Below are positions 4,499 to 26,888 of a DNA stretch of 29,073 nucleotides, piece after piece. The position numbers were made by a program, and so were the translations under genes. Numbering within the stretch: position 1 is the stretch's first letter; the number at the start of each line of letters is the position of its first letter. Location of the stretch: the IMG/VR virus record IMGVR_UViG_2778261396_000002; one strand, 5' to 3'. Source of the stretch: a virus. Taxonomy: Duplodnaviria; Heunggongvirae; Uroviricota; Caudoviricetes. The notes under the pieces were generated by a model. It was not told where the DNA came from. It was given only the letters and a program-made list of their open reading frames with translations, and did no database searches.

Positions 4499-5713
4499 AT
4501 GAAGATCGTAAAGGCTGAAGTTTTTGTTACCTGTCCGGGGCGTAATTTCGTCACGTTAAAAATCACCACTGAGGACGGTATTACGGGCCTTGGGGATGCC
4601 ACCCTCAATGGACGTGAGCTTTCCGTGGCCTCTTATTTGCAGGATCACCTTTGTCCGCAGCTTATTGGTCGCGATGCGCACCGTATCGAAGATATCTGGC
4701 AGTTTTTCTATAAAGGTGCTTACTGGCGTCGCGGTCCGGTTACGATGTCGGCCATTTCAGCGGTTGATATGGCGCTGTGGGATATTAAAGCCAAAGCTGC
4801 CAACATGCCGCTTTACCAGTTACTCGGCGGCGCGTCTCGTGAAGGGGTGATGGTTTATTGCCATACCACCGGTCACAGTATTGATGAAGCTCTGGATGAT
4901 TATGCCCGTCATCAGGAGCTGGGATTCAAAGCCATCCGCGTGCAGTGCGGAATCCCTGGTATGAAAACCACCTACGGCATGTCGAAAGGTAAAGGTCTGG
5001 CTTATGAACCCGCAACCAAAGGACAGTGGCCGGAAGAGCAGCTGTGGTCGACGGAGAAATACCTCGATTTCATGCCGAAATTGTTTGACGCGGTACGTAA
5101 CAAGTTTGGTTTTAATGAACATTTGCTGCATGACATGCACCATCGCTTAACGCCTATTGAAGCGGCGCGCTTTGGTAAAAGCATTGAAGATTATCGCATG
5201 TTCTGGATGGAAGACCCGACGCCTGCGGAAAACCAGGAATGCTTCCGTCTCATTCGCCAACATACCGTCACACCCATCGCAGTGGGTGAAGTCTTCAACA
5301 GCATCTGGGACTGCAAACAACTGATTGAAGAGCAACTCATCGATTATATCCGCACCACGCTGACCCATGCAGGCGGAATTACCGGTATGCGCCGGATTGC
5401 CGATTTTGCTTCGCTGTATCAGGTACGTACTGGCTCACACGGTCCTTCCGATTTGTCACCAGTCTGCATGGCTGCGGCGCTGCACTTTGATCTGTGGGTC
5501 CCCAATTTCGGTGTCCAGGAATACATGGGTTATTCCGAACAAATGCTCGAAGTCTTCCCGCACAACTGGACTTTCGATAACGGCTATATGCATCCGGGAG
5601 ACAAACCGGGTCTTGGTATCGAATTCGATGAAAAGCTGGCGGCGAAATATCCCTATGAACCTGCTTATCTACCAGTCGCACGTCTGGAAGATGGCACGCT
5701 GTGGAACTGGTAA
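4499..5713 (+). CDS. rspA: Starvation-sensing protein RspA, enolase-superfamily mannonate dehydratase-like (404 aa)
   Basis: ORF 4466..5713; internal ATG 4499 with AAGGAA SD gives [40 protein letters not shown]…. Confidence 0.9.
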
Positions 5714-16186: not shown

Positions 16187-16378
16187 ATGAGGAAGAACAA
16201 AGTGGCTGATTTTTGTTCAGCTAAATATAACATCAGTTTTGAAGAGCGGGATGAACTATTAATGGACTATGGTGAGTTACGCGGTGGAAGTGCTGCTGAT
16301 GTCGAATCCTAGCGTGATGACTATGAAGCGGGAAAAACTCCGGTCGAAGCATATTGTGATGAGTGGGGCGATGAATGA
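16187..16378 (+). pseudogene. Small ORF (63 codons) with in-frame amber TAG at 16310-16312
   Basis: MRKNKVADFCSAKYNISFEERDELLMDYGELRGGSAADVES*RDDYEAGKTPVEAYCDEWGDE*; stop overlaps next ORF start (ATGA). Confidence 0.35.
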
Positions 16379-16662
16379 GCGAGATTAATTATCAGGAAGG
16401 GCATGAAACGGCGGGGCAAGCAAAACCAGTGGCATGGCGATATCGCTACGTGAAAAAAGGCGTTACGGACTTTCAGGGGAAGTAGTGGTCTGGTGACTGG
16501 AAATATGTACCGAAAAAAGAGGATTGTAACGACAGGCCGAACTATCAAATTCAGGCCTTATTCACTGCCTCACCAGTCCCAGTTACATCAGAAGAACTGG
16601 TTAAAGCTGTGCACTTTTATGAACAACTAAAACGCGAAAATCCACCAACATCCGGCAACTAG
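16375..16662 (+). pseudogene. Small ORF (95 codons) with in-frame amber TAG at 16483-16485
   Basis: MSEINYQEGHETAGQAKPVAWRYRYVKKGVTDFQGK*WSGDWKYVPKKEDCNDRPNYQIQALFTASPVPVTSEELVKAVHFYEQLKRENPPTSGN*. Confidence 0.35.
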
Positions 16663-16916
16663 ATTAATGGATTAACTATGTCGGTTAAACGACCAGCCAA
16701 CTGAAAAAGCGGAAACCTGATTACAGGTTGCCAGATAAGGCAATGAGCTACCTGGCGCGGAACGGACTGATAAGTATGGGGAATGTTTTACGATGAACCT
16801 TTAGACTAAAGAGTTTGTAACGCTATGTAAGTGATTTTTTCTGGTTTAGATATTTATATGTCCGGCCAAATTGAGGTGTGTTTAAATGTAATTGCACATT
16901 GATTGTAGGAGGAATA

Positions 16917-17096
16917 ATGAAAAACGCATTGCAGTTTTTGTTTGTTGCGTTCTGGTTGTTCGCATCATGTATGCCCATCATCTTCACAGCAAGGTATATG
17001 GAAAAAGTTGATGTTTTGATATTAATATTTGGATATATAAATGCCCTTTTTTTAGGGGTGTTCATGGCGGTCATGTGCATTGAATACTGGCGGTAA
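16917..17096 (+). CDS. Small two-TM membrane protein (59 aa)
   Basis: AGGAGG SD at 16907-16912 then ATG 16917: MKNALQFLFVAFWLFASCMPIIFTARYMEKVDVLILIFGYINALFLGVFMAVMCIEYWR. Confidence 0.45.
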   Translation: MKNALQFLFVAFWLFASCMPIIFTARYMEKVDVLILIFGYINALFLGVFMAVMCIEYWR

Positions 17097-17430
17097 ATAC
17101 AGCGAACTCCATTGGTTTAGTTGGATATTTACTGTGCTGGACAAAAACGGTTTGCGGGGAAATCTTAGTTAAGTAGAATGACTGCGGGTGCTTGAGGCTA
17201 TCTGCCTCGGGCATGGACACCAACGGCAGATAGAGAAAAGCCCCAGTTAACATTACGCGTCCTGCAAGACGCTTAACATTAATCTGAGGCCAATTTCATG
17301 CTAGACACATGTAGGTTAGCCTCTTACGTGCCGAAAGGCACGGAGAAGCAGGCTATTGTTAACACCAAGCTGTAATGTCCCCTTTGAACCATTCTAAAAT
17401 GTCCCCAGACAATTCTCTGGGGGATTTTTC

Positions 17431-18744
17431 ATGATCAAAGAGACTGTTACGATGAGTCATAAGGAACTCCACCGACTTCAGATTATTCAGGAACAAGCTG
17501 CGGCACGCATTGGCATTTCTATTCGGCAGGTTAAACGTCTGGTGCAACGGTATAGAAATGAAGGGCCTTCTGGTCTGGTTTCCCACCGACGTGGAAAGCG
17601 TCCTAATAATTCCTTTTCTACTGAATTCAGAGCAACAGTAATTTCACTCCTCAAAGGCCGTTACGCTGATTTTGGACCTACGTTTGCGTGCGAAAAATTG
17701 CGCGAGATACACGGTTTATCTTTATCCGTTGAAACTCTCAGAAAGTGGATGATAGAAGAGGGGTTATGGCGTGAACGCCGTCGTAAAATTGCCCGTATAT
17801 ATCAACGCCGCATGCGACGACCATCTTACGGTGAACTGATCCAGATTGATGGCTCACCTCATGACTGGTTTGAAAATCGAGGCCCCAGATGTACACTGAT
17901 CGTTTTCATTGATGATGCCACCAGTGCGTTGATGGCGTTGCGTTTTGTGCCTGCTGAAACAACCCGGGCTTACATGGAAACCCTCCGGGGTTACCTTAAT
18001 GATCATGGCGTACCGCTCGCTCTCTACTCTGATAGACACAGTATATTCAGGGTAAATAACCCAGAGCGGGAAGGTGAGCTGACCCAGTTCACTCGTGCGA
18101 TAAAGACACTGGGCATCGAGCCAATCCATGCCAACAGCCCGCAGGCAAAAGGGCGGGTAGAGCGCGCCAATCAGACACTACAGGACAGGCTGGTCAAAGA
18201 AATGCGGCTTCAGAATATCAGTGATATTGAAACAGCAAATGCATGGTTGCCGACCTTTATTGAAGCCTATAACAACCGGTTCGCTACGTCGCCTCGTACT
18301 ACTGATAATGCTCATCTTGATGTGCACCATTCTGAAGAGGAACTGGGTTATATCTTCAGCCTACAGGCGAAGCGCGTTCTGTCTAAAAATCTCACTTTCC
18401 AGTACAAAAGCAGTGCGTTTCAGGTACGCAGTGAGGGCCGGGGATATCGACTTAGGCATTCGGTTGTTACTGTATGCGAGAACTTTGACGGTGAAATTAA
18501 CGTTCTGTATGACGGGAAAGCGCTGGGCTGGGAAAAGTATGTTGATGGCCCGGAGCCTATACCACTGGATGATGAAAAGAGTGTCCATGAACGAGTGGAT
18601 AATGCCCGTATTGATTTACGCTCAAAATACTATGTTAAACCTAAAGCTGACCATCCCTGGCTTACGCGCCGAACGCAAAGTCATCAGCAAGTTAAGCCCC
18701 CGAAGTTACCTAAAAAGAAGCCTGATCCCGATAAAAAAGATTGA
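17431..18744 (+). CDS. DDE transposase, integrase-core (rve) type with N-terminal HTH; ISNCY(IS1202/ISPlu15-group)- or IS481-like (437 aa)
   Basis: ORF translation: HTH (GISIRQVKRLVQRY), DDE-type core (…IQIDGSPHDW…ALYSDRHSIF…ANSPQAKGRVERANQTLQ…); family from memory. Confidence 0.8.
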   Translation: MIKETVTMSHKELHRLQIIQEQAAARIGISIRQVKRLVQRYRNEGPSGLVSHRRGKRPNNSFSTEFRATVISLLKGRYADFGPTFACEKLREIHGLSLSVETLRKWMIEEGLWRERRRKIARIYQRRMRRPSYGELIQIDGSPHDWFENRGPRCTLIVFIDDATSALMALRFVPAETTRAYMETLRGYLNDHGVPLALYSDRHSIFRVNNPEREGELTQFTRAIKTLGIEPIHANSPQAKGRVERANQTLQDRLVKEMRLQNISDIETANAWLPTFIEAYNNRFATSPRTTDNAHLDVHHSEEELGYIFSLQAKRVLSKNLTFQYKSSAFQVRSEGRGYRLRHSVVTVCENFDGEINVLYDGKALGWEKYVDGPEPIPLDDEKSVHERVDNARIDLRSKYYVKPKADHPWLTRRTQSHQQVKPPKLPKKKPDPDKKD

Positions 18745-19140
18745 AACCAAGATCGATTCGGTTGAGTGCATATCCATTCATAGGGTAGATTCTTAAGTCG
18801 CGTTTCTGGTGTTCATTTTCGGGTGGTTTGTTACTTGTTTTACCGGGGATATGCCAGAAACGCGCTGAGTCAGTCTGGGCGGTGCGCGTAATGAGGCGTT
18901 ATGGTAAATAGCCTATGCTAATGTCCGCTAAGAGCAAGAAGCGGAAGTTGGCAGTTTTGTGGACTGTCCCCACAAAAGTGACTACAGAAATAGTTGCAAT
19001 TCATAATTGATCATGGGTTGTCAGTTAAACTCGTGGCGATTTAAATAGACTAATTGGGAGTGCGTCCATTACTTATATCTTGTAATGTTAACTATCAGAA
19101 ATGATACAAAGATAATATGTCTTTAAAGAAAAGGCTGATG

Positions 19141-19166
19141 GCGAAAAGTGGCCCGATGAGGGCCAC
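19141..19166 (-). terminator. Rho-independent terminator downstream of flxA
   Basis: GTGGCCC-GATGA-GGGCCAC hairpin followed by T-run on minus strand. Confidence 0.5.
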
Positions 19167-19180
19167 AATACGGCTGTCAC

Positions 19181-19513
19181 TTAGACGTAAATATCAATGG
19201 TGCCAGCGGTATTTGTATCGTCTTTTTTCTCTTCTTTTTTATCAGGCTGAACTGTCGCGTCTTCATTCTTTTTCTCTGCCTGCTGCCTTAACAACTGCTC
19301 CAGTTGAGCCCAGAGGCTTTCAATTTGCTTCTGTACCAATGCAGCCATTTCTTTTTTCTGCTGTGTCGTCATCCCCTCTTCCGATGAGATTTTCCCAAGC
19401 TTTTCAGTCAGCACCTGAATTTGTCTTGTGATTTTGGCTATTTCTGATGTTCCTTCCGGGGCGGAGTTGTTTGAAATAACGGTTGAGGTATTTCCCTGAA
19501 TTGTGACAGACAT
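19181..19513 (-). CDS. flxA: FliA-regulated protein FlxA (110 aa)
   Basis: ORF translation MSVTIQGNTSTVISNNSAPEGTSEIAKITRQIQVLTEKLGKI… coiled-coil, Lys/Glu-rich C-terminus. Confidence 0.9.
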   Translation of the reverse strand: MSVTIQGNTSTVISNNSAPEGTSEIAKITRQIQVLTEKLGKISSEEGMTTQQKKEMAALVQKQIESLWAQLEQLLRQQAEKKNEDATVQPDKKEEKKDDTNTAGTIDIYV

Positions 19514-19536
19514 AGATTTCTCCTTTTAAAAAAGCA

Positions 19537-19564
19537 CTATCGGCATGCACAAAAAAATCTTTAA
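19537..19564 (-). promoter_or_regulatory. Sigma-28 (FliA) promoter of flxA: TAAA-N15-GCCGATAG
   Basis: Minus-strand sequence TAAAGATTTTTTTGTGCATGCCGATAG immediately upstream of flxA start. Confidence 0.6.
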
Positions 19565-19715
19565 TCGTATTTCTTGTGTCATTAATTGTTTGATGTTCAG
19601 ATTGTTTTCCTCGCGGGCTGGCGCGCCTCAGAAAGTAAAGCTTGTTGACAGGGGTAAACGTTCGGCAATAATTTTCTGCCGCATGCGGGTGTTGCATAAA
19701 ACGTGTTACGTTCCT

Positions 19716-20021
19716 TTATCGACAGGTCAGGTCACCGCTCACCAGCCGACGAGAAAGCAACACTGACATGCTAAAGCAAAAAATAGATGAATAAGTTGAG
19801 TTGTGCATATGTAGCCTGACCGTCACAAAGTATATGGTGTCTGTACCAGTAAGATGATGGCCGGACTCTTTAAAAACGAGCTGACCTGCACAATACAGGA
19901 TGGACTTAGCAATGGCTGCTCCTGGCACAAAGCGGACAGTGATCACCGTTCTTACGACTACTTTCTGACTTCCTTCGTGACTTGCCCTAAGCATGTTGTA
20001 GTGCGATACTTGTAATGACAT
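19716..20021 (-). CDS. ydfV: Hypothetical prophage protein YdfV-like (101 aa)
   Basis: ORF of the recalled YdfV length, divergent from relB; start lies inside relBE operator region. Confidence 0.45.
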   Translation of the reverse strand: MSLQVSHYNMLRASHEGSQKVVVRTVITVRFVPGAAIAKSILYCAGQLVFKESGHHLTGTDTIYFVTVRLHMHNSTYSSIFCFSMSVLLSRRLVSGDLTCR

Positions 20022-20033
20022 TTGTAATTACAA
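20010..20033. promoter_or_regulatory. relBE operator/promoter inverted repeats (TTGTAATGACATTTGTAATTACAA)
   Basis: Inverted TTGTAAT/ATTACAA elements directly upstream of relB start codon. Confidence 0.5.
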
Positions 20034-20045
20034 GAGGTGTAAGAC

Positions 20046-20285
20046 ATGGGTAGCATTAACCTGCGTATTGACGATGAACTTAAAGCGCGTTCTTACGCCG
20101 CGCTTGAAAAAATGGGTGTAACTCCTTCTGAAGCGCTTCGTCTCATGCTCGAGTATATCGCTGACAATGAACGCTTGCCGTTCAAACAGACACTCCTGAG
20201 TGATGAAGATGCTGAACTTGTGGAGATAGTGAAAGAACGGCTTCGTAATCCTAAGCCAGTACGTGTGACGCTGGATGAACTCTGA
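20046..20285 (+). CDS. relB: Antitoxin RelB (79 aa)
   Basis: ORF translation MGSINLRIDDELKARSYAALEKMGVTPSEALRLMLEYIADNERLPF…. Confidence 0.95.
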   Translation: MGSINLRIDDELKARSYAALEKMGVTPSEALRLMLEYIADNERLPFKQTLLSDEDAELVEIVKERLRNPKPVRVTLDEL

Positions 20286-20572
20286 TGGCGTATTTTCTGG
20301 ATTTTGACGAGCGGGCACTAAAGGAATGGCGAAAGCTGGGCTCGACGGTACGTGAACAGTTGAAAAAGAAGCTGGTTGAAGTACTTGAGTCACCCCGGAT
20401 TGAAGCAAACAAGCTCCGTGGTATGCCTGATTGTTACAAGATTAAGCTCCGGTCTTCAGGCTATCGCCTTGTATACCAGGTTATAGACGAGAAAGTTGTC
20501 GTTTTCGTGATTTCTGTTGGGAAAAGAGAACGCTCGGAAGTATATAGCGAGGCGGTCAAACGCATTCTCTGA
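20285..20572 (+). CDS. relE: mRNA interferase toxin RelE (95 aa)
   Basis: ORF translation MAYFLDFDERALKEWRKLGSTVREQLKKKLVEVLESPRIEANKLRGMPDCYKIKLRSSGYRLVYQVIDEKVVVFVISVGKRERSEVY…; 1-nt overlap with relB. Confidence 0.95.
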   Translation: MAYFLDFDERALKEWRKLGSTVREQLKKKLVEVLESPRIEANKLRGMPDCYKIKLRSSGYRLVYQVIDEKVVVFVISVGKRERSEVYSEAVKRIL

Positions 20573-20643
20573 ACCAAAGCATGACATCTCTGTTTCGCAC
20601 CGAAGGTGACACTTCTGCTTTGCGTTGACAGGAGAAGCAGGCT

Positions 20644-20799
20644 ATGAAGCAGCAAAAGGCGATGTTAATCGCCCTGATCGTCATCTGTTTAACCGTCATA
20701 GTGACGGCACTGGTAACGAGGAAAGACCTCTGCGAGGTACGAATCCGAACCGGCCAGACGGAGGTCGCTGTCTTCACAGCTTACGAACCTGAGGAGTAA
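20644..20799 (+). CDS. hokD: Hok-family type I toxin HokD/RelF (51 aa)
   Basis: Manual translation MKQQKAMLIALIVICLTVIVTALVTRKDLCEVRIRTGQTEVAVFTAYEPEE*. Confidence 0.9.
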   Translation: MKQQKAMLIALIVICLTVIVTALVTRKDLCEVRIRTGQTEVAVFTAYEPEE

Positions 20800-25552: not shown

Positions 25553-25860
25553 ATGACTCAAGACTATGAACTGGTTGTGAAAGGAGTCCGTAATTTTGAG
25601 AATAAAGTTACGGTAACTGTAGCCTTACAGGACAAAGAACGCTTTGACGGTGAAATTTTTGACCTGGATGTCGCCATGGACCGTGTTGAAGGAGCTGCGC
25701 TGGAGTTTTATGAGGCAGCAGCCAGAAGGAGCGTCCGGCAAGTCTTCCTGGAAGTAGCAGAAAAATTGTCAGAAAAAGTTGAGTCTTATCTGCAGCATCA
25801 GTACTCCTTTAAGATTGAAAATCCTGCCAATAAGCACGAGCGTCCTCATCATAAATATCT

Positions 25861-25864
<4 letters not shown>
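25553..25864 (+). CDS. ydfR: Prophage protein YdfR (103 aa)
   Basis: ORF translation MTQDYELVVKGVRNFENKVTVTVALQDKERFDGEIFDLDV…; between holin and lysozyme. Confidence 0.75.

Positions 25865-26888
<1,024 letters not shown>

Follow-up and report, generated by a model that had tools for sequence, protein, structure and literature searches.

Analysis of a Qin-type lambdoid prophage of Escherichia coli revealed a reading frame of 59 codons, here called ORF59, which is very probably a real but unannotated protein-coding gene with a tiny two-helix inner-membrane product. The window, that is the whole stretch of 29,073 nucleotides that was analyzed, comprises this prophage together with flanking chromosome. 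The explanation that best accounts for all of the observations, and which we regard as moderately probable, is that ORF59 is a real gene encoding an inner-membrane helical hairpin, and that it belongs to an E. coli and Shigella prophage family of two clades (A, represented in the window, and B) that is linked to hok. The ORF59 family is new, while its kind, the small accessory membrane proteins of prophages, is known. The features discussed below are collected in Table 1.

Table 1. Positions in the window of ORF59 and of the features surrounding it.
Feature	Position	Strand	Remarks
Conserved non-coding patch	16781-16832	+	85-135 nt before the ATG; alignment of clades A and B, z = 5.7 versus shuffles
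Antisense ORF, 85 aa	16823-17080	-	'hypothetical protein' or 'hornerin' in phage records; not a gene
Shine-Dalgarno AGGAGG	16907-16912	+	4 nt (AATA) before the ATG; read in the sequence
CDS of the 59-aa protein with two predicted TM segments (ORF59), clade A	16917-17096	+	ATG 16917, TAA 17094-17096
hok promoter (inferred), TTGCGG, 16-nt spacer, TAGAAT	17152-17179	+	ends 6 nt before the leader start; read in the sequence
hok/sok 5' leader (sok target, mok ATG 17298)	17186-17357	+	Rfam RF01794, 104.1 bits, E = 7e-23
15-nt direct repeat GGAGAAGCAGGCTAT, target-site duplication, left copy	17342-17356	+	right copy 20631-20645
Transposon-like insertion, 3,274 bp (3.27 kb)	17357-20630	+	splits the hok locus; 28-nt imperfect terminal inverted repeats
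hokD CDS	20644-20799	+	3' half of this hok locus, now separated

The first-pass annotation, which was made from the sequence alone, had described a strong ribosome-binding site followed by a frame of 59 codons, and the sequence reads exactly as described, with a polymorphism at 16910 that changes the Shine-Dalgarno to AGGGGG in 14 of 43 clade A haplotypes. The clade A product of 59 residues is MKNALQFLFVAFWLFASCMPIIFTARYMEKVDVLILIFGYINALFLGVFMAVMCIEYWR. The two transmembrane segments that had been claimed were also recovered, both as hydrophobic stretches in a Kyte-Doolittle profile (19-residue window maxima of 2.1 and 2.4; GRAVY 1.27) and as helices in a single-sequence AlphaFold model (residues 3-24 and 31-58, separated by a six-residue break; mean pLDDT 82.6), two methods that call helices readily in any hydrophobic sequence. 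Within the frame, T occupies 31 of the 59 second codon positions as compared with 14 of the 59 third positions. When the frame was shuffled with its mononucleotide composition preserved, 1.7% of the shuffles stayed open; two hydrophobic segments were found in 3% of these open shuffles, and the observed GRAVY was reached in 1.6% of them. The skew of T to codon position 2 and the rarity of comparable shuffles indicate that the features of ORF59 exceed the expectation from base composition. Different readings of the locus were considered and rejected. A 72-aa version that starts at GTG 16878 was set aside, since the extension is not kept in clade B, whose frame opens at ATG. The antisense ORF, whose third codon positions coincide with those of ORF59, is split into pieces of 27 and 33 aa in clade B, lacks a Shine-Dalgarno sequence and has no PHROG match.

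The DNA carrying this frame is widespread. A 251-nt stretch around ORF59 is present at 95-100% identity in 1,568 of 5,426 complete E. coli genomes (clade A, approximately 29%), so that a lack of conservation among related prophages, which the first-pass annotation had named as grounds for abandoning the gene, was not observed. Clade B DNA is present in 1,045 of the same 5,426 genomes (approximately 19%). Members of the family were found only in E. coli and Shigella, where they are carried by lambdoid prophages and prophage remnants. The RefSeq annotation produced by PGAP is absent at the locus in all 100 rows sampled (60 of 60 for clade A and 40 of 40 for clade B), and older or non-RefSeq annotations list a 'hypothetical' or 'membrane' protein, often of 72 aa from an upstream GTG or TTG. 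Three phage records carry ORF59, and the two whose annotation was inspected call the opposite strand. Scans against Pfam, NCBIfam, PHROGs and PADLOC at E <= 10 returned zero matches, as did a profile search of the PDB, and the protein accordingly keeps the unassigned status that it had been given. Foldseek comparison with viral models returned generic helical hairpins only, at E >= 0.9. Literature searches with the ORF59 peptide sequences and UniRef identifiers found neither reports nor expression data, and the literature on ribosome profiling in strain LF82 yielded nothing on the ORF59 gene.

A single-sequence, word-indexed search for homologues returned only relatives with at least 74% identity and truncated fusions. 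Clade B came to light when 1.84 billion representative proteins were scanned in full with HMMER, where it was found as P0037, a protein of 59 aa that aligns without gaps over residues 1-59 at 41% identity and has the same start and stop; the commonest clade B form, P0042, is MRKILMYLCISIWIVISCVPIILTSEYLTEASIMALMFGHANALCIGVFISIIYIECWR. The existence of this second clade of 59-aa proteins means that ORF59 is not, strictly, the orphan it had been called. Searching with a profile built from both clades did not add a third. The clade B gene is located in a prophage remnant that lies between ttcA with an integrase fragment on one side and uspF-ompN on the other, in strains that include LF82 and ATCC 11775, the latter a type strain. 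The integrase and hok of this remnant are fragments and ORF59 is its sole intact ORF, and the clade B copy may therefore be kept for the benefit of the host.

Comparison of the two clades provided the evidence on which the coding assignment chiefly depends. At 59% nucleotide identity overall, 35, 43 and 29 of 60 positions are identical at codon positions 1, 2 and 3, respectively, and pN is 0.34 and pS 0.72, giving a dN/dS of approximately 0.2 that is imprecise, with pS near saturation. No indels separate the clades within ORF59, as compared with at least eight gaps needed in the aligned flanks, and the z-score of the between-clade alignment is 15 in ORF59, 5.7 upstream and 3.6 downstream. Furthermore, the ORF59 frame alone is open in both clades; all others, including the annotated antisense frame, are stopped in at least one of them. 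Frame, start and stop are thus kept in a diverged homologue in which pN is well below pS, which is the pattern by which a coding gene is recognized. This comparison shows long-term purifying selection on the ORF59 protein. There are two clades only, and the conservation of the protein and its linkage to hok each rest on one deep comparison.

Variation within clade A was investigated with 240 loci gathered from viral, metagenome and genome collections. The frame is intact in all 162 clade A loci that span the whole segment, an observation that says little at 2-5% divergence. Among 71 IS-free haplotypes, ORF59 contains nine variable sites, of which eight are nonsynonymous and one is synonymous (the common variants are A16V, V31I, I37M and Y40H), and the synonymous excess among close relatives that is looked for in a coding gene was therefore not seen. 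The adjacent hok gene, in the same comparison, has 18 nonsynonymous and 11 synonymous sites. These data suggest that the recent evolution of ORF59 in clade A has been neutral or relaxed, with no sign of purifying selection. Variable sites make up 9 of 180 nt (5%) in ORF59 versus roughly 8-9% in the immediate flanks as estimated from 30-nt bins, a modest difference, and the zone of low variation extends from approximately 16800 to 17190 and is wider than the gene. A conserved block coinciding exactly with ORF59 had been considered and was dropped when more haplotypes revealed this wider zone. Likewise, locus L086, a candidate '53% identical homologue', proved to be the same locus in a frameshift-ridden assembly and not a diverged copy.

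We then asked what the conserved residues imply for the protein. TM1 is predicted at approximately residues 4-24 and TM2 at residues 33-55, with a loop at residues 25-32 and a C-terminus that reads E-Y-W-R. The N-terminus is basic (MK in clade A, MRK in clade B), and the clade A loop, ARYMEKVD, is neutral, its clade B counterpart, SEYLTEAS, being acidic; from the positive-inside rule we infer that both termini are cytoplasmic and that the loop of approximately eight residues is periplasmic. Across 58% replacement between the clades, M1, L5, L8, W13, S17, C18, P20, I21, I22, T24, L36, F38, G39, N42, A43, L44, V48, F49, E56, W58 and R59 are invariant, and G47 is present in all variants except one. 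The constant residues that are small or polar and lie on the TM helices are S17, C18, P20 and T24 in the first and G39, N42, A43 and G47 in the second, where G39xxxA43xxxG47 forms a glycine-zipper-like face with N42 alongside; to these is added the C-terminal E56-x-W58-R59. The conserved face suggests a role in helix-helix packing, self-association or partner binding. Judging from this residue pattern, ORF59 would act within the membrane by means of helix-helix contacts. The constant small and polar TM residues and the C-terminal motif make self-association or binding to a membrane partner the most likely mode of action, which would in turn alter membrane permeability or passage across the membrane.

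The region upstream of ORF59 contains a second conserved element, the non-coding patch listed in Table 1. A palindrome within it, at 16800-16812, is CTTTAGaCTAAAG in clade A and CTTCAGtCTGAAG in clade B, such that both arms have changed and the symmetry has been kept. Within clade A the patch is also the stretch with the least variation (one variable site per 30 nt). Structure prediction places a small hairpin in the patch in both clades, and folding of the upstream region is no stabler than that of shuffles (z of +0.2 and -0.8). The patch is a candidate regulatory element, either an operator or a 5'-UTR hairpin, and as such it hints at regulation of ORF59's own; transcription of the codirectional early-right operon may also continue through the gene. 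A consensus promoter scan of both strands over 16300-17500 found no site and also missed the evident hok promoter, and it is hence uninformative. The minus strand has one terminator-like hairpin, at 16729-16714, which is no more than chance would give, and the region around ORF59 has no Rfam match besides the sok/hok leader.

The genomic setting of ORF59 was established by a RefSeq genome match of 100% identity, from which the gene order of the prophage was taken. The order is exonuclease, ydfD, dicB, ydfC/B/A, dicA, dicC, a YdaT-like gene and a replication gene, followed by DUF977, a methyltransferase, two decayed ORFs, the ISNCY transposase, ydfW, flxA, ydfV and relBE, and finally hokD, rem, ydfU, the Q antiterminator and cspF/cspB. 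The window also contains DicF and two cspA-type leaders. This order puts ORF59 into the early-right (nin-like) region, after the replication genes and before Q, and its strand is that of the early-right operon. Local GC is 35-37% at ORF59 versus roughly 42-56% in the neighboring prophage genes, a difference that counts in favor of our preferred reading. The first-pass annotation had placed it alone between decayed ORFs and a hairpin-rich segment. The decayed ORFs are indeed there; the hairpin-rich segment is the hok/sok leader, and the cassette with hok/sok had thus been missed. The match to the leader covers the whole model (positions 1-157) with 104.1 bits, as compared with a gathering score of 59 for the family, and ends at the hok start codon. 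The same promoter element that precedes this leader is conserved in the hok loci of VT2-Sakai, mEp460 and PPompW.

In the window, the hok locus is interrupted by the transposon-like insertion (Table 1). Its cargo consists of an ISNCY or IS1202-like (ISEsa1-like) transposase (17431-18744), flxA, ydfV, relB and relE; the transposase matches NF033594 with 456 bits, and in one genome the element is named IS1202-like ISEsa1. Of the 28 positions in the inverted repeats (17357-17384 and 20603-20630), 21 agree, which is the best match in the region, and the exact 15-nt direct repeat is a second copy of the final bases of the hok leader. The left junction of the insertion was detected in 776 genomes. 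Based on the inverted repeats and the exact direct repeat that flanks them, an IS1202-like transposon carrying relBE appears to have inserted into the hok start codon and thereby to have produced the relBE-hokD 'operon' of Qin. The region from ydfX to ydfW was subsequently deleted from K-12 MG1655, together with ORF59 and the orphaned leader; surveys of small proteins in K-12 missed ORF59 for this reason, which also makes K-12 data unusable for this gene.

In the absence of the insertion, leader, mok and hok are contiguous and mok and hok are intact, as seen in 134 IS-free loci that include phage vB_EcoS-640R1 (51-aa Hok), and all full-length clade A loci run on into the sok/hok leader. In clade B, the 3' half of a hok gene begins approximately 45 nt after ORF59, with no leader left. 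Since both clades of ORF59 sit directly upstream of hok, gene order indicates that the two genes have been adjacent since before the clades split and that they form a cassette. The left boundary of this module, at approximately 16710, is common to otherwise different prophages. Other hok loci (those of Stx phages, mEp460 and P1-like elements) are without the ORF59 gene, and hok therefore does not need ORF59.

These observations can be set against the alternative that ORF59 is an open frame by chance within non-coding DNA that is AT-rich and T-rich, for instance a spacer or regulatory region before the hok promoter, in which case its hydrophobicity would be a by-product of composition and its conservation would act on DNA or RNA. 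Such a frame would agree with the blank left by PGAP in all of the sampled clade A genomes, with the preference of phage annotators for the opposite strand and with the occurrence of the sequence in E. coli and Shigella only, but it would not be expected to retain its start, stop and 59 codons without a single indel at the distance of clade B, while every other frame acquired stops in at least one clade. The 8:1 ratio of nonsynonymous to synonymous polymorphism within clade A and the equal invariance of the non-coding stretch 16800-16860 also favor a chance ORF; between the clades, however, identity peaks at codon position 2 and is lowest at position 3, and pN falls well below pS. Composition is likewise a poor explanation, given that so few shuffles stay open, that so few of these have two TM segments and that T is concentrated at codon position 2. 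In our judgment the between-clade signature outweighs the ambiguous recent polymorphism of clade A, and we consider a chance ORF improbable. Taking ORF59 instead as a gene for a membrane protein, we ranked its potential roles. Exclusion or defense at the membrane is placed first, as a possible but tentative assignment; a membrane-damaging toxin is placed second and is rather unlikely; a modulator or partner of Hok is placed third and is less likely again; and the remaining probability falls to something else. Among the closest known systems are small inner-membrane superinfection-exclusion proteins of prophages, such as T4 Imm and HK97 gp15. Like these, ORF59 is prophage-borne and very small, is predicted to form a two-TM hairpin with no soluble domain, and belongs to the accessory genes, lying apart from the core modules in DNA of low GC content. 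It differs from them in lacking PHROG, Pfam or PADLOC similarity and in its early-right (nin-like) location, away from the immunity or tail genes; homology to a described exclusion protein was not found in PHROGs, PADLOC, Pfam or the viral fold search, and the exclusion role is putative. Morons are accessory genes that phages carry between their core genes and express independently, and ORF59 resembles them in its GC content relative to its neighbors, in the shared boundary near 16710 and in its conserved upstream element. The scan of its surroundings gave no consensus promoter or terminator, and its early-right operon orientation makes read-through possible. A toxin could take the form of a type I toxin paired with an antisense RNA of its own, or of a holin- or pinholin-like pore former that acts in lysis or abortive infection; we regard this proposal as unlikely. 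The protein is small and very hydrophobic, falls under the generic type I size limit of 60 aa and adjoins another membrane toxin, hok, with which it is physically linked in one mobile cassette. Both it and the Hok/Gef toxins are small hydrophobic membrane peptides of prophages or plasmids, yet Hok has a single TM with a Cys-containing tail in the periplasm and is under the control of the RNA elements sok, mok and fbi, whereas ORF59 has two TMs, no Pfam or NCBIfam Hok match at E <= 10, no detected antisense RNA and an hhalign probability of 1.3% against HokD. Type I antitoxin RNAs often map approximately 100 nt upstream of the toxin ATG, where ORF59 has its conserved patch, and the minus-strand hairpin could serve as a terminator; however, a promoter-like site was found on neither strand, no Rfam family but sok was detected, and by our own reading of both clades the terminator stem is polymorphic (site 16727) and without a clade B counterpart. 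It would also be odd for an expressed toxin to remain intact in the approximately 1,045 clade B genomes with no recognizable antitoxin beside it. The pore-forming version would draw on the glycine-zipper-like face of TM2 with its conserved N42. Class II holins and pinholins (the S21 family and EssQ) also have two TMs and approximately 60-70 aa, and by eye EssQ has a similar small-xxx-small-xxx-small TM2 face (GxxxSxxxG, as compared with G39xxxA43xxxG47 in ORF59). Nevertheless, the holin-like reading offered by the first-pass annotation did not hold up. As that annotation had noted, essQ is elsewhere (near 25.3-25.6 kb, ending near 25555), followed by an endolysin ORF (25861-26394) and a further ORF (26406-26888), so that ORF59 lies approximately 8.4 kb outside the lysis cassette of a prophage that already has EssQ. 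ORF59 also has no charged C-terminal tail, a class II holin feature, as the protein ends with E-Y-W-R four residues past TM2; its TM1 is strongly hydrophobic instead of being weakly hydrophobic and SAR-like; and the family alignment compared with EssQ of the same window gave an hhalign probability of 0.2%.

It may also be proposed that ORF59 is a functional partner of Hok, such as an immunity protein, potentiator or membrane chaperone, within a three-part system of ORF59, hok and Sok. The adjacency of the two genes in both deeply diverged clades, despite the mosaicism of phages, is the principal argument for this proposal, which we nonetheless consider quite unlikely. ORF59 is still intact in about half of the clade A genomes (776), where hok has been uncoupled from its leader, and in clade B, which has lost the 5' half of hok. 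Unrelated small hydrophobic ORFs end 16-46 nt from the hok leader in three of six other phage or plasmid hok loci, namely VT2-Sakai (27 aa), mEp460 (30 aa) and a P1-like plasmid (up to 108 aa). On the other hand, some hok loci, for example those of 666R9 and PPompW, are without any such ORF, the VT2-type ORF is stopped in phiSTEC1589, and 673R5 has a frameshift in the P1-type ORF. A term search of a recent survey of Hok diversity and genomic localization gave no passage about a small protein or a neighbor gene. More generally, a small hydrophobic gene just upstream of hok could be a functional third component of prophage hok/sok cassettes, a membrane partner that gates, potentiates or neutralizes Hok or couples killing to phage infection. 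We see this generalization as a long shot.

Our preferred reading, in which ORF59 is a real gene of a two-clade prophage family linked to hok, bears on several aspects of these elements. ORF59 is a concrete case of the small-protein blind spot, being blank in RefSeq and placed on the wrong strand in phage records. The apparent transposon origin of the relBE-hokD arrangement bears on how two textbook loci arose. The fixed place of ORF59 upstream of hok/sok ties it, in a way open to experiment, to a classic toxin-antitoxin system, and if the third-component proposal were true, a 'small TM ORF + hok' arrangement would recur among these elements and have been overlooked, with ORF59 as its best-conserved case.

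In the GenBank phage records, the small two-transmembrane gene ORF59, although conserved, has been passed over on the plus strand, and the annotation falls instead on an antisense 85-aa ORF labelled "hypothetical protein" or "hornerin". Clade B, which carries the diverged homologue of the 59-aa protein, does not keep that antisense frame intact. In the prophage remnant that houses the clade B copy, the 59-aa ORF is the sole intact reading frame; with it lie AT-rich DNA, part of an integrase gene, the 3' half of hok and pieces of an ABC-3 type permease gene. Conservation across both clades extends 5' of the gene to a non-coding patch, within which lies a palindrome, CTTTAGaCTAAAG (window 16800-16812). 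The clade B form, CTTCAGtCTGAAG, differs from it by a symmetric double change, and the patch is possibly an operator or a small hairpin.

A further apparent homologue, in the genome-collection record L086 (CP178302.1, "E. coli strain ECMA0423"), was rejected as a diverged relative. The match was misleadingly scored as "53% identical" because many single-base indels across the locus frameshift a copy that is otherwise 89% identical. These indels look like assembly error rather than divergence.

Small hydrophobic ORFs unrelated to ORF59 were also found at other hok loci, where they end 16-46 nt 5' of the hok leader. In phiSTEC1589 the VT2-type ORF is interrupted by a stop codon, and 673R5 has a frameshift in the P1-type ORF; in two of the other hok loci inspected no small hydrophobic ORF was present upstream of hok.

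Features of the hok region and of related loci (window coordinates unless a collected locus, L, is named)
Feature	Coordinates	Details
Non-coding patch 5' of ORF59	16781-16832; L243 about 4855-4912	Kept in both clades
Antisense ORF, 85 aa	16823-17080; L002 5907-6158; L003 5907-6158	Minus strand in window
Orphaned sok/hok leader	17186-17357	Rfam RF01794, 104 bits
Transposon-like unit, 3,274 bp	within 17342-20645	Cargo: ISNCY/IS1202-like (ISEsa1-like) transposase, flxA, ydfV, relB, relE
Direct repeat GGAGAAGCAGGCTAT, 15 nt, exact	17342-17356 + 20631-20645	On both sides of the unit
Terminal inverted repeats, 28 nt, imperfect	17357-17384 + 20603-20630	21/28 positions identical
ISNCY transposase ORF, intact, 437 aa	17431-18744	
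Clade B prophage remnant, roughly 2.3 kb	L243 3984-6260	Lies between ttcA and uspF on a B2-type E. coli chromosome
VT2-Sakai small ORF, 27 aa, MTWPEAFANVGTVMAVVLVVYSICRWR	L241 1422-1505	ATG overlaps orf75 stop
mEp460 small ORF, 30 aa	L242 1386-1478	SD = CAGGAGG
P1-like element ORF, up to 108 aa	L253 365-691	Multi-TM

In Qin, the relBE-hokD arrangement appears to stem from a transposon insertion. The relBE-bearing unit lies within the hok start codon, and its left junction was found in 776 of the 5,426 complete E. coli genomes searched. Within it, the K-12 "protein YdfW" (49 aa; window 18595-18744) matches, in frame, the 3'-terminal 49 codons of the intact transposase ORF; YdfW is a piece of the transposase, not a separate gene.

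A distance of 3.27 kb separates the upstream sok/hok leader from the hokD coding sequence (20644-20799). In K-12 MG1655 the leader is deleted, along with all sequence between ydfX and ydfW. The leader retained in the window is the regulatory half that hokD is missing.
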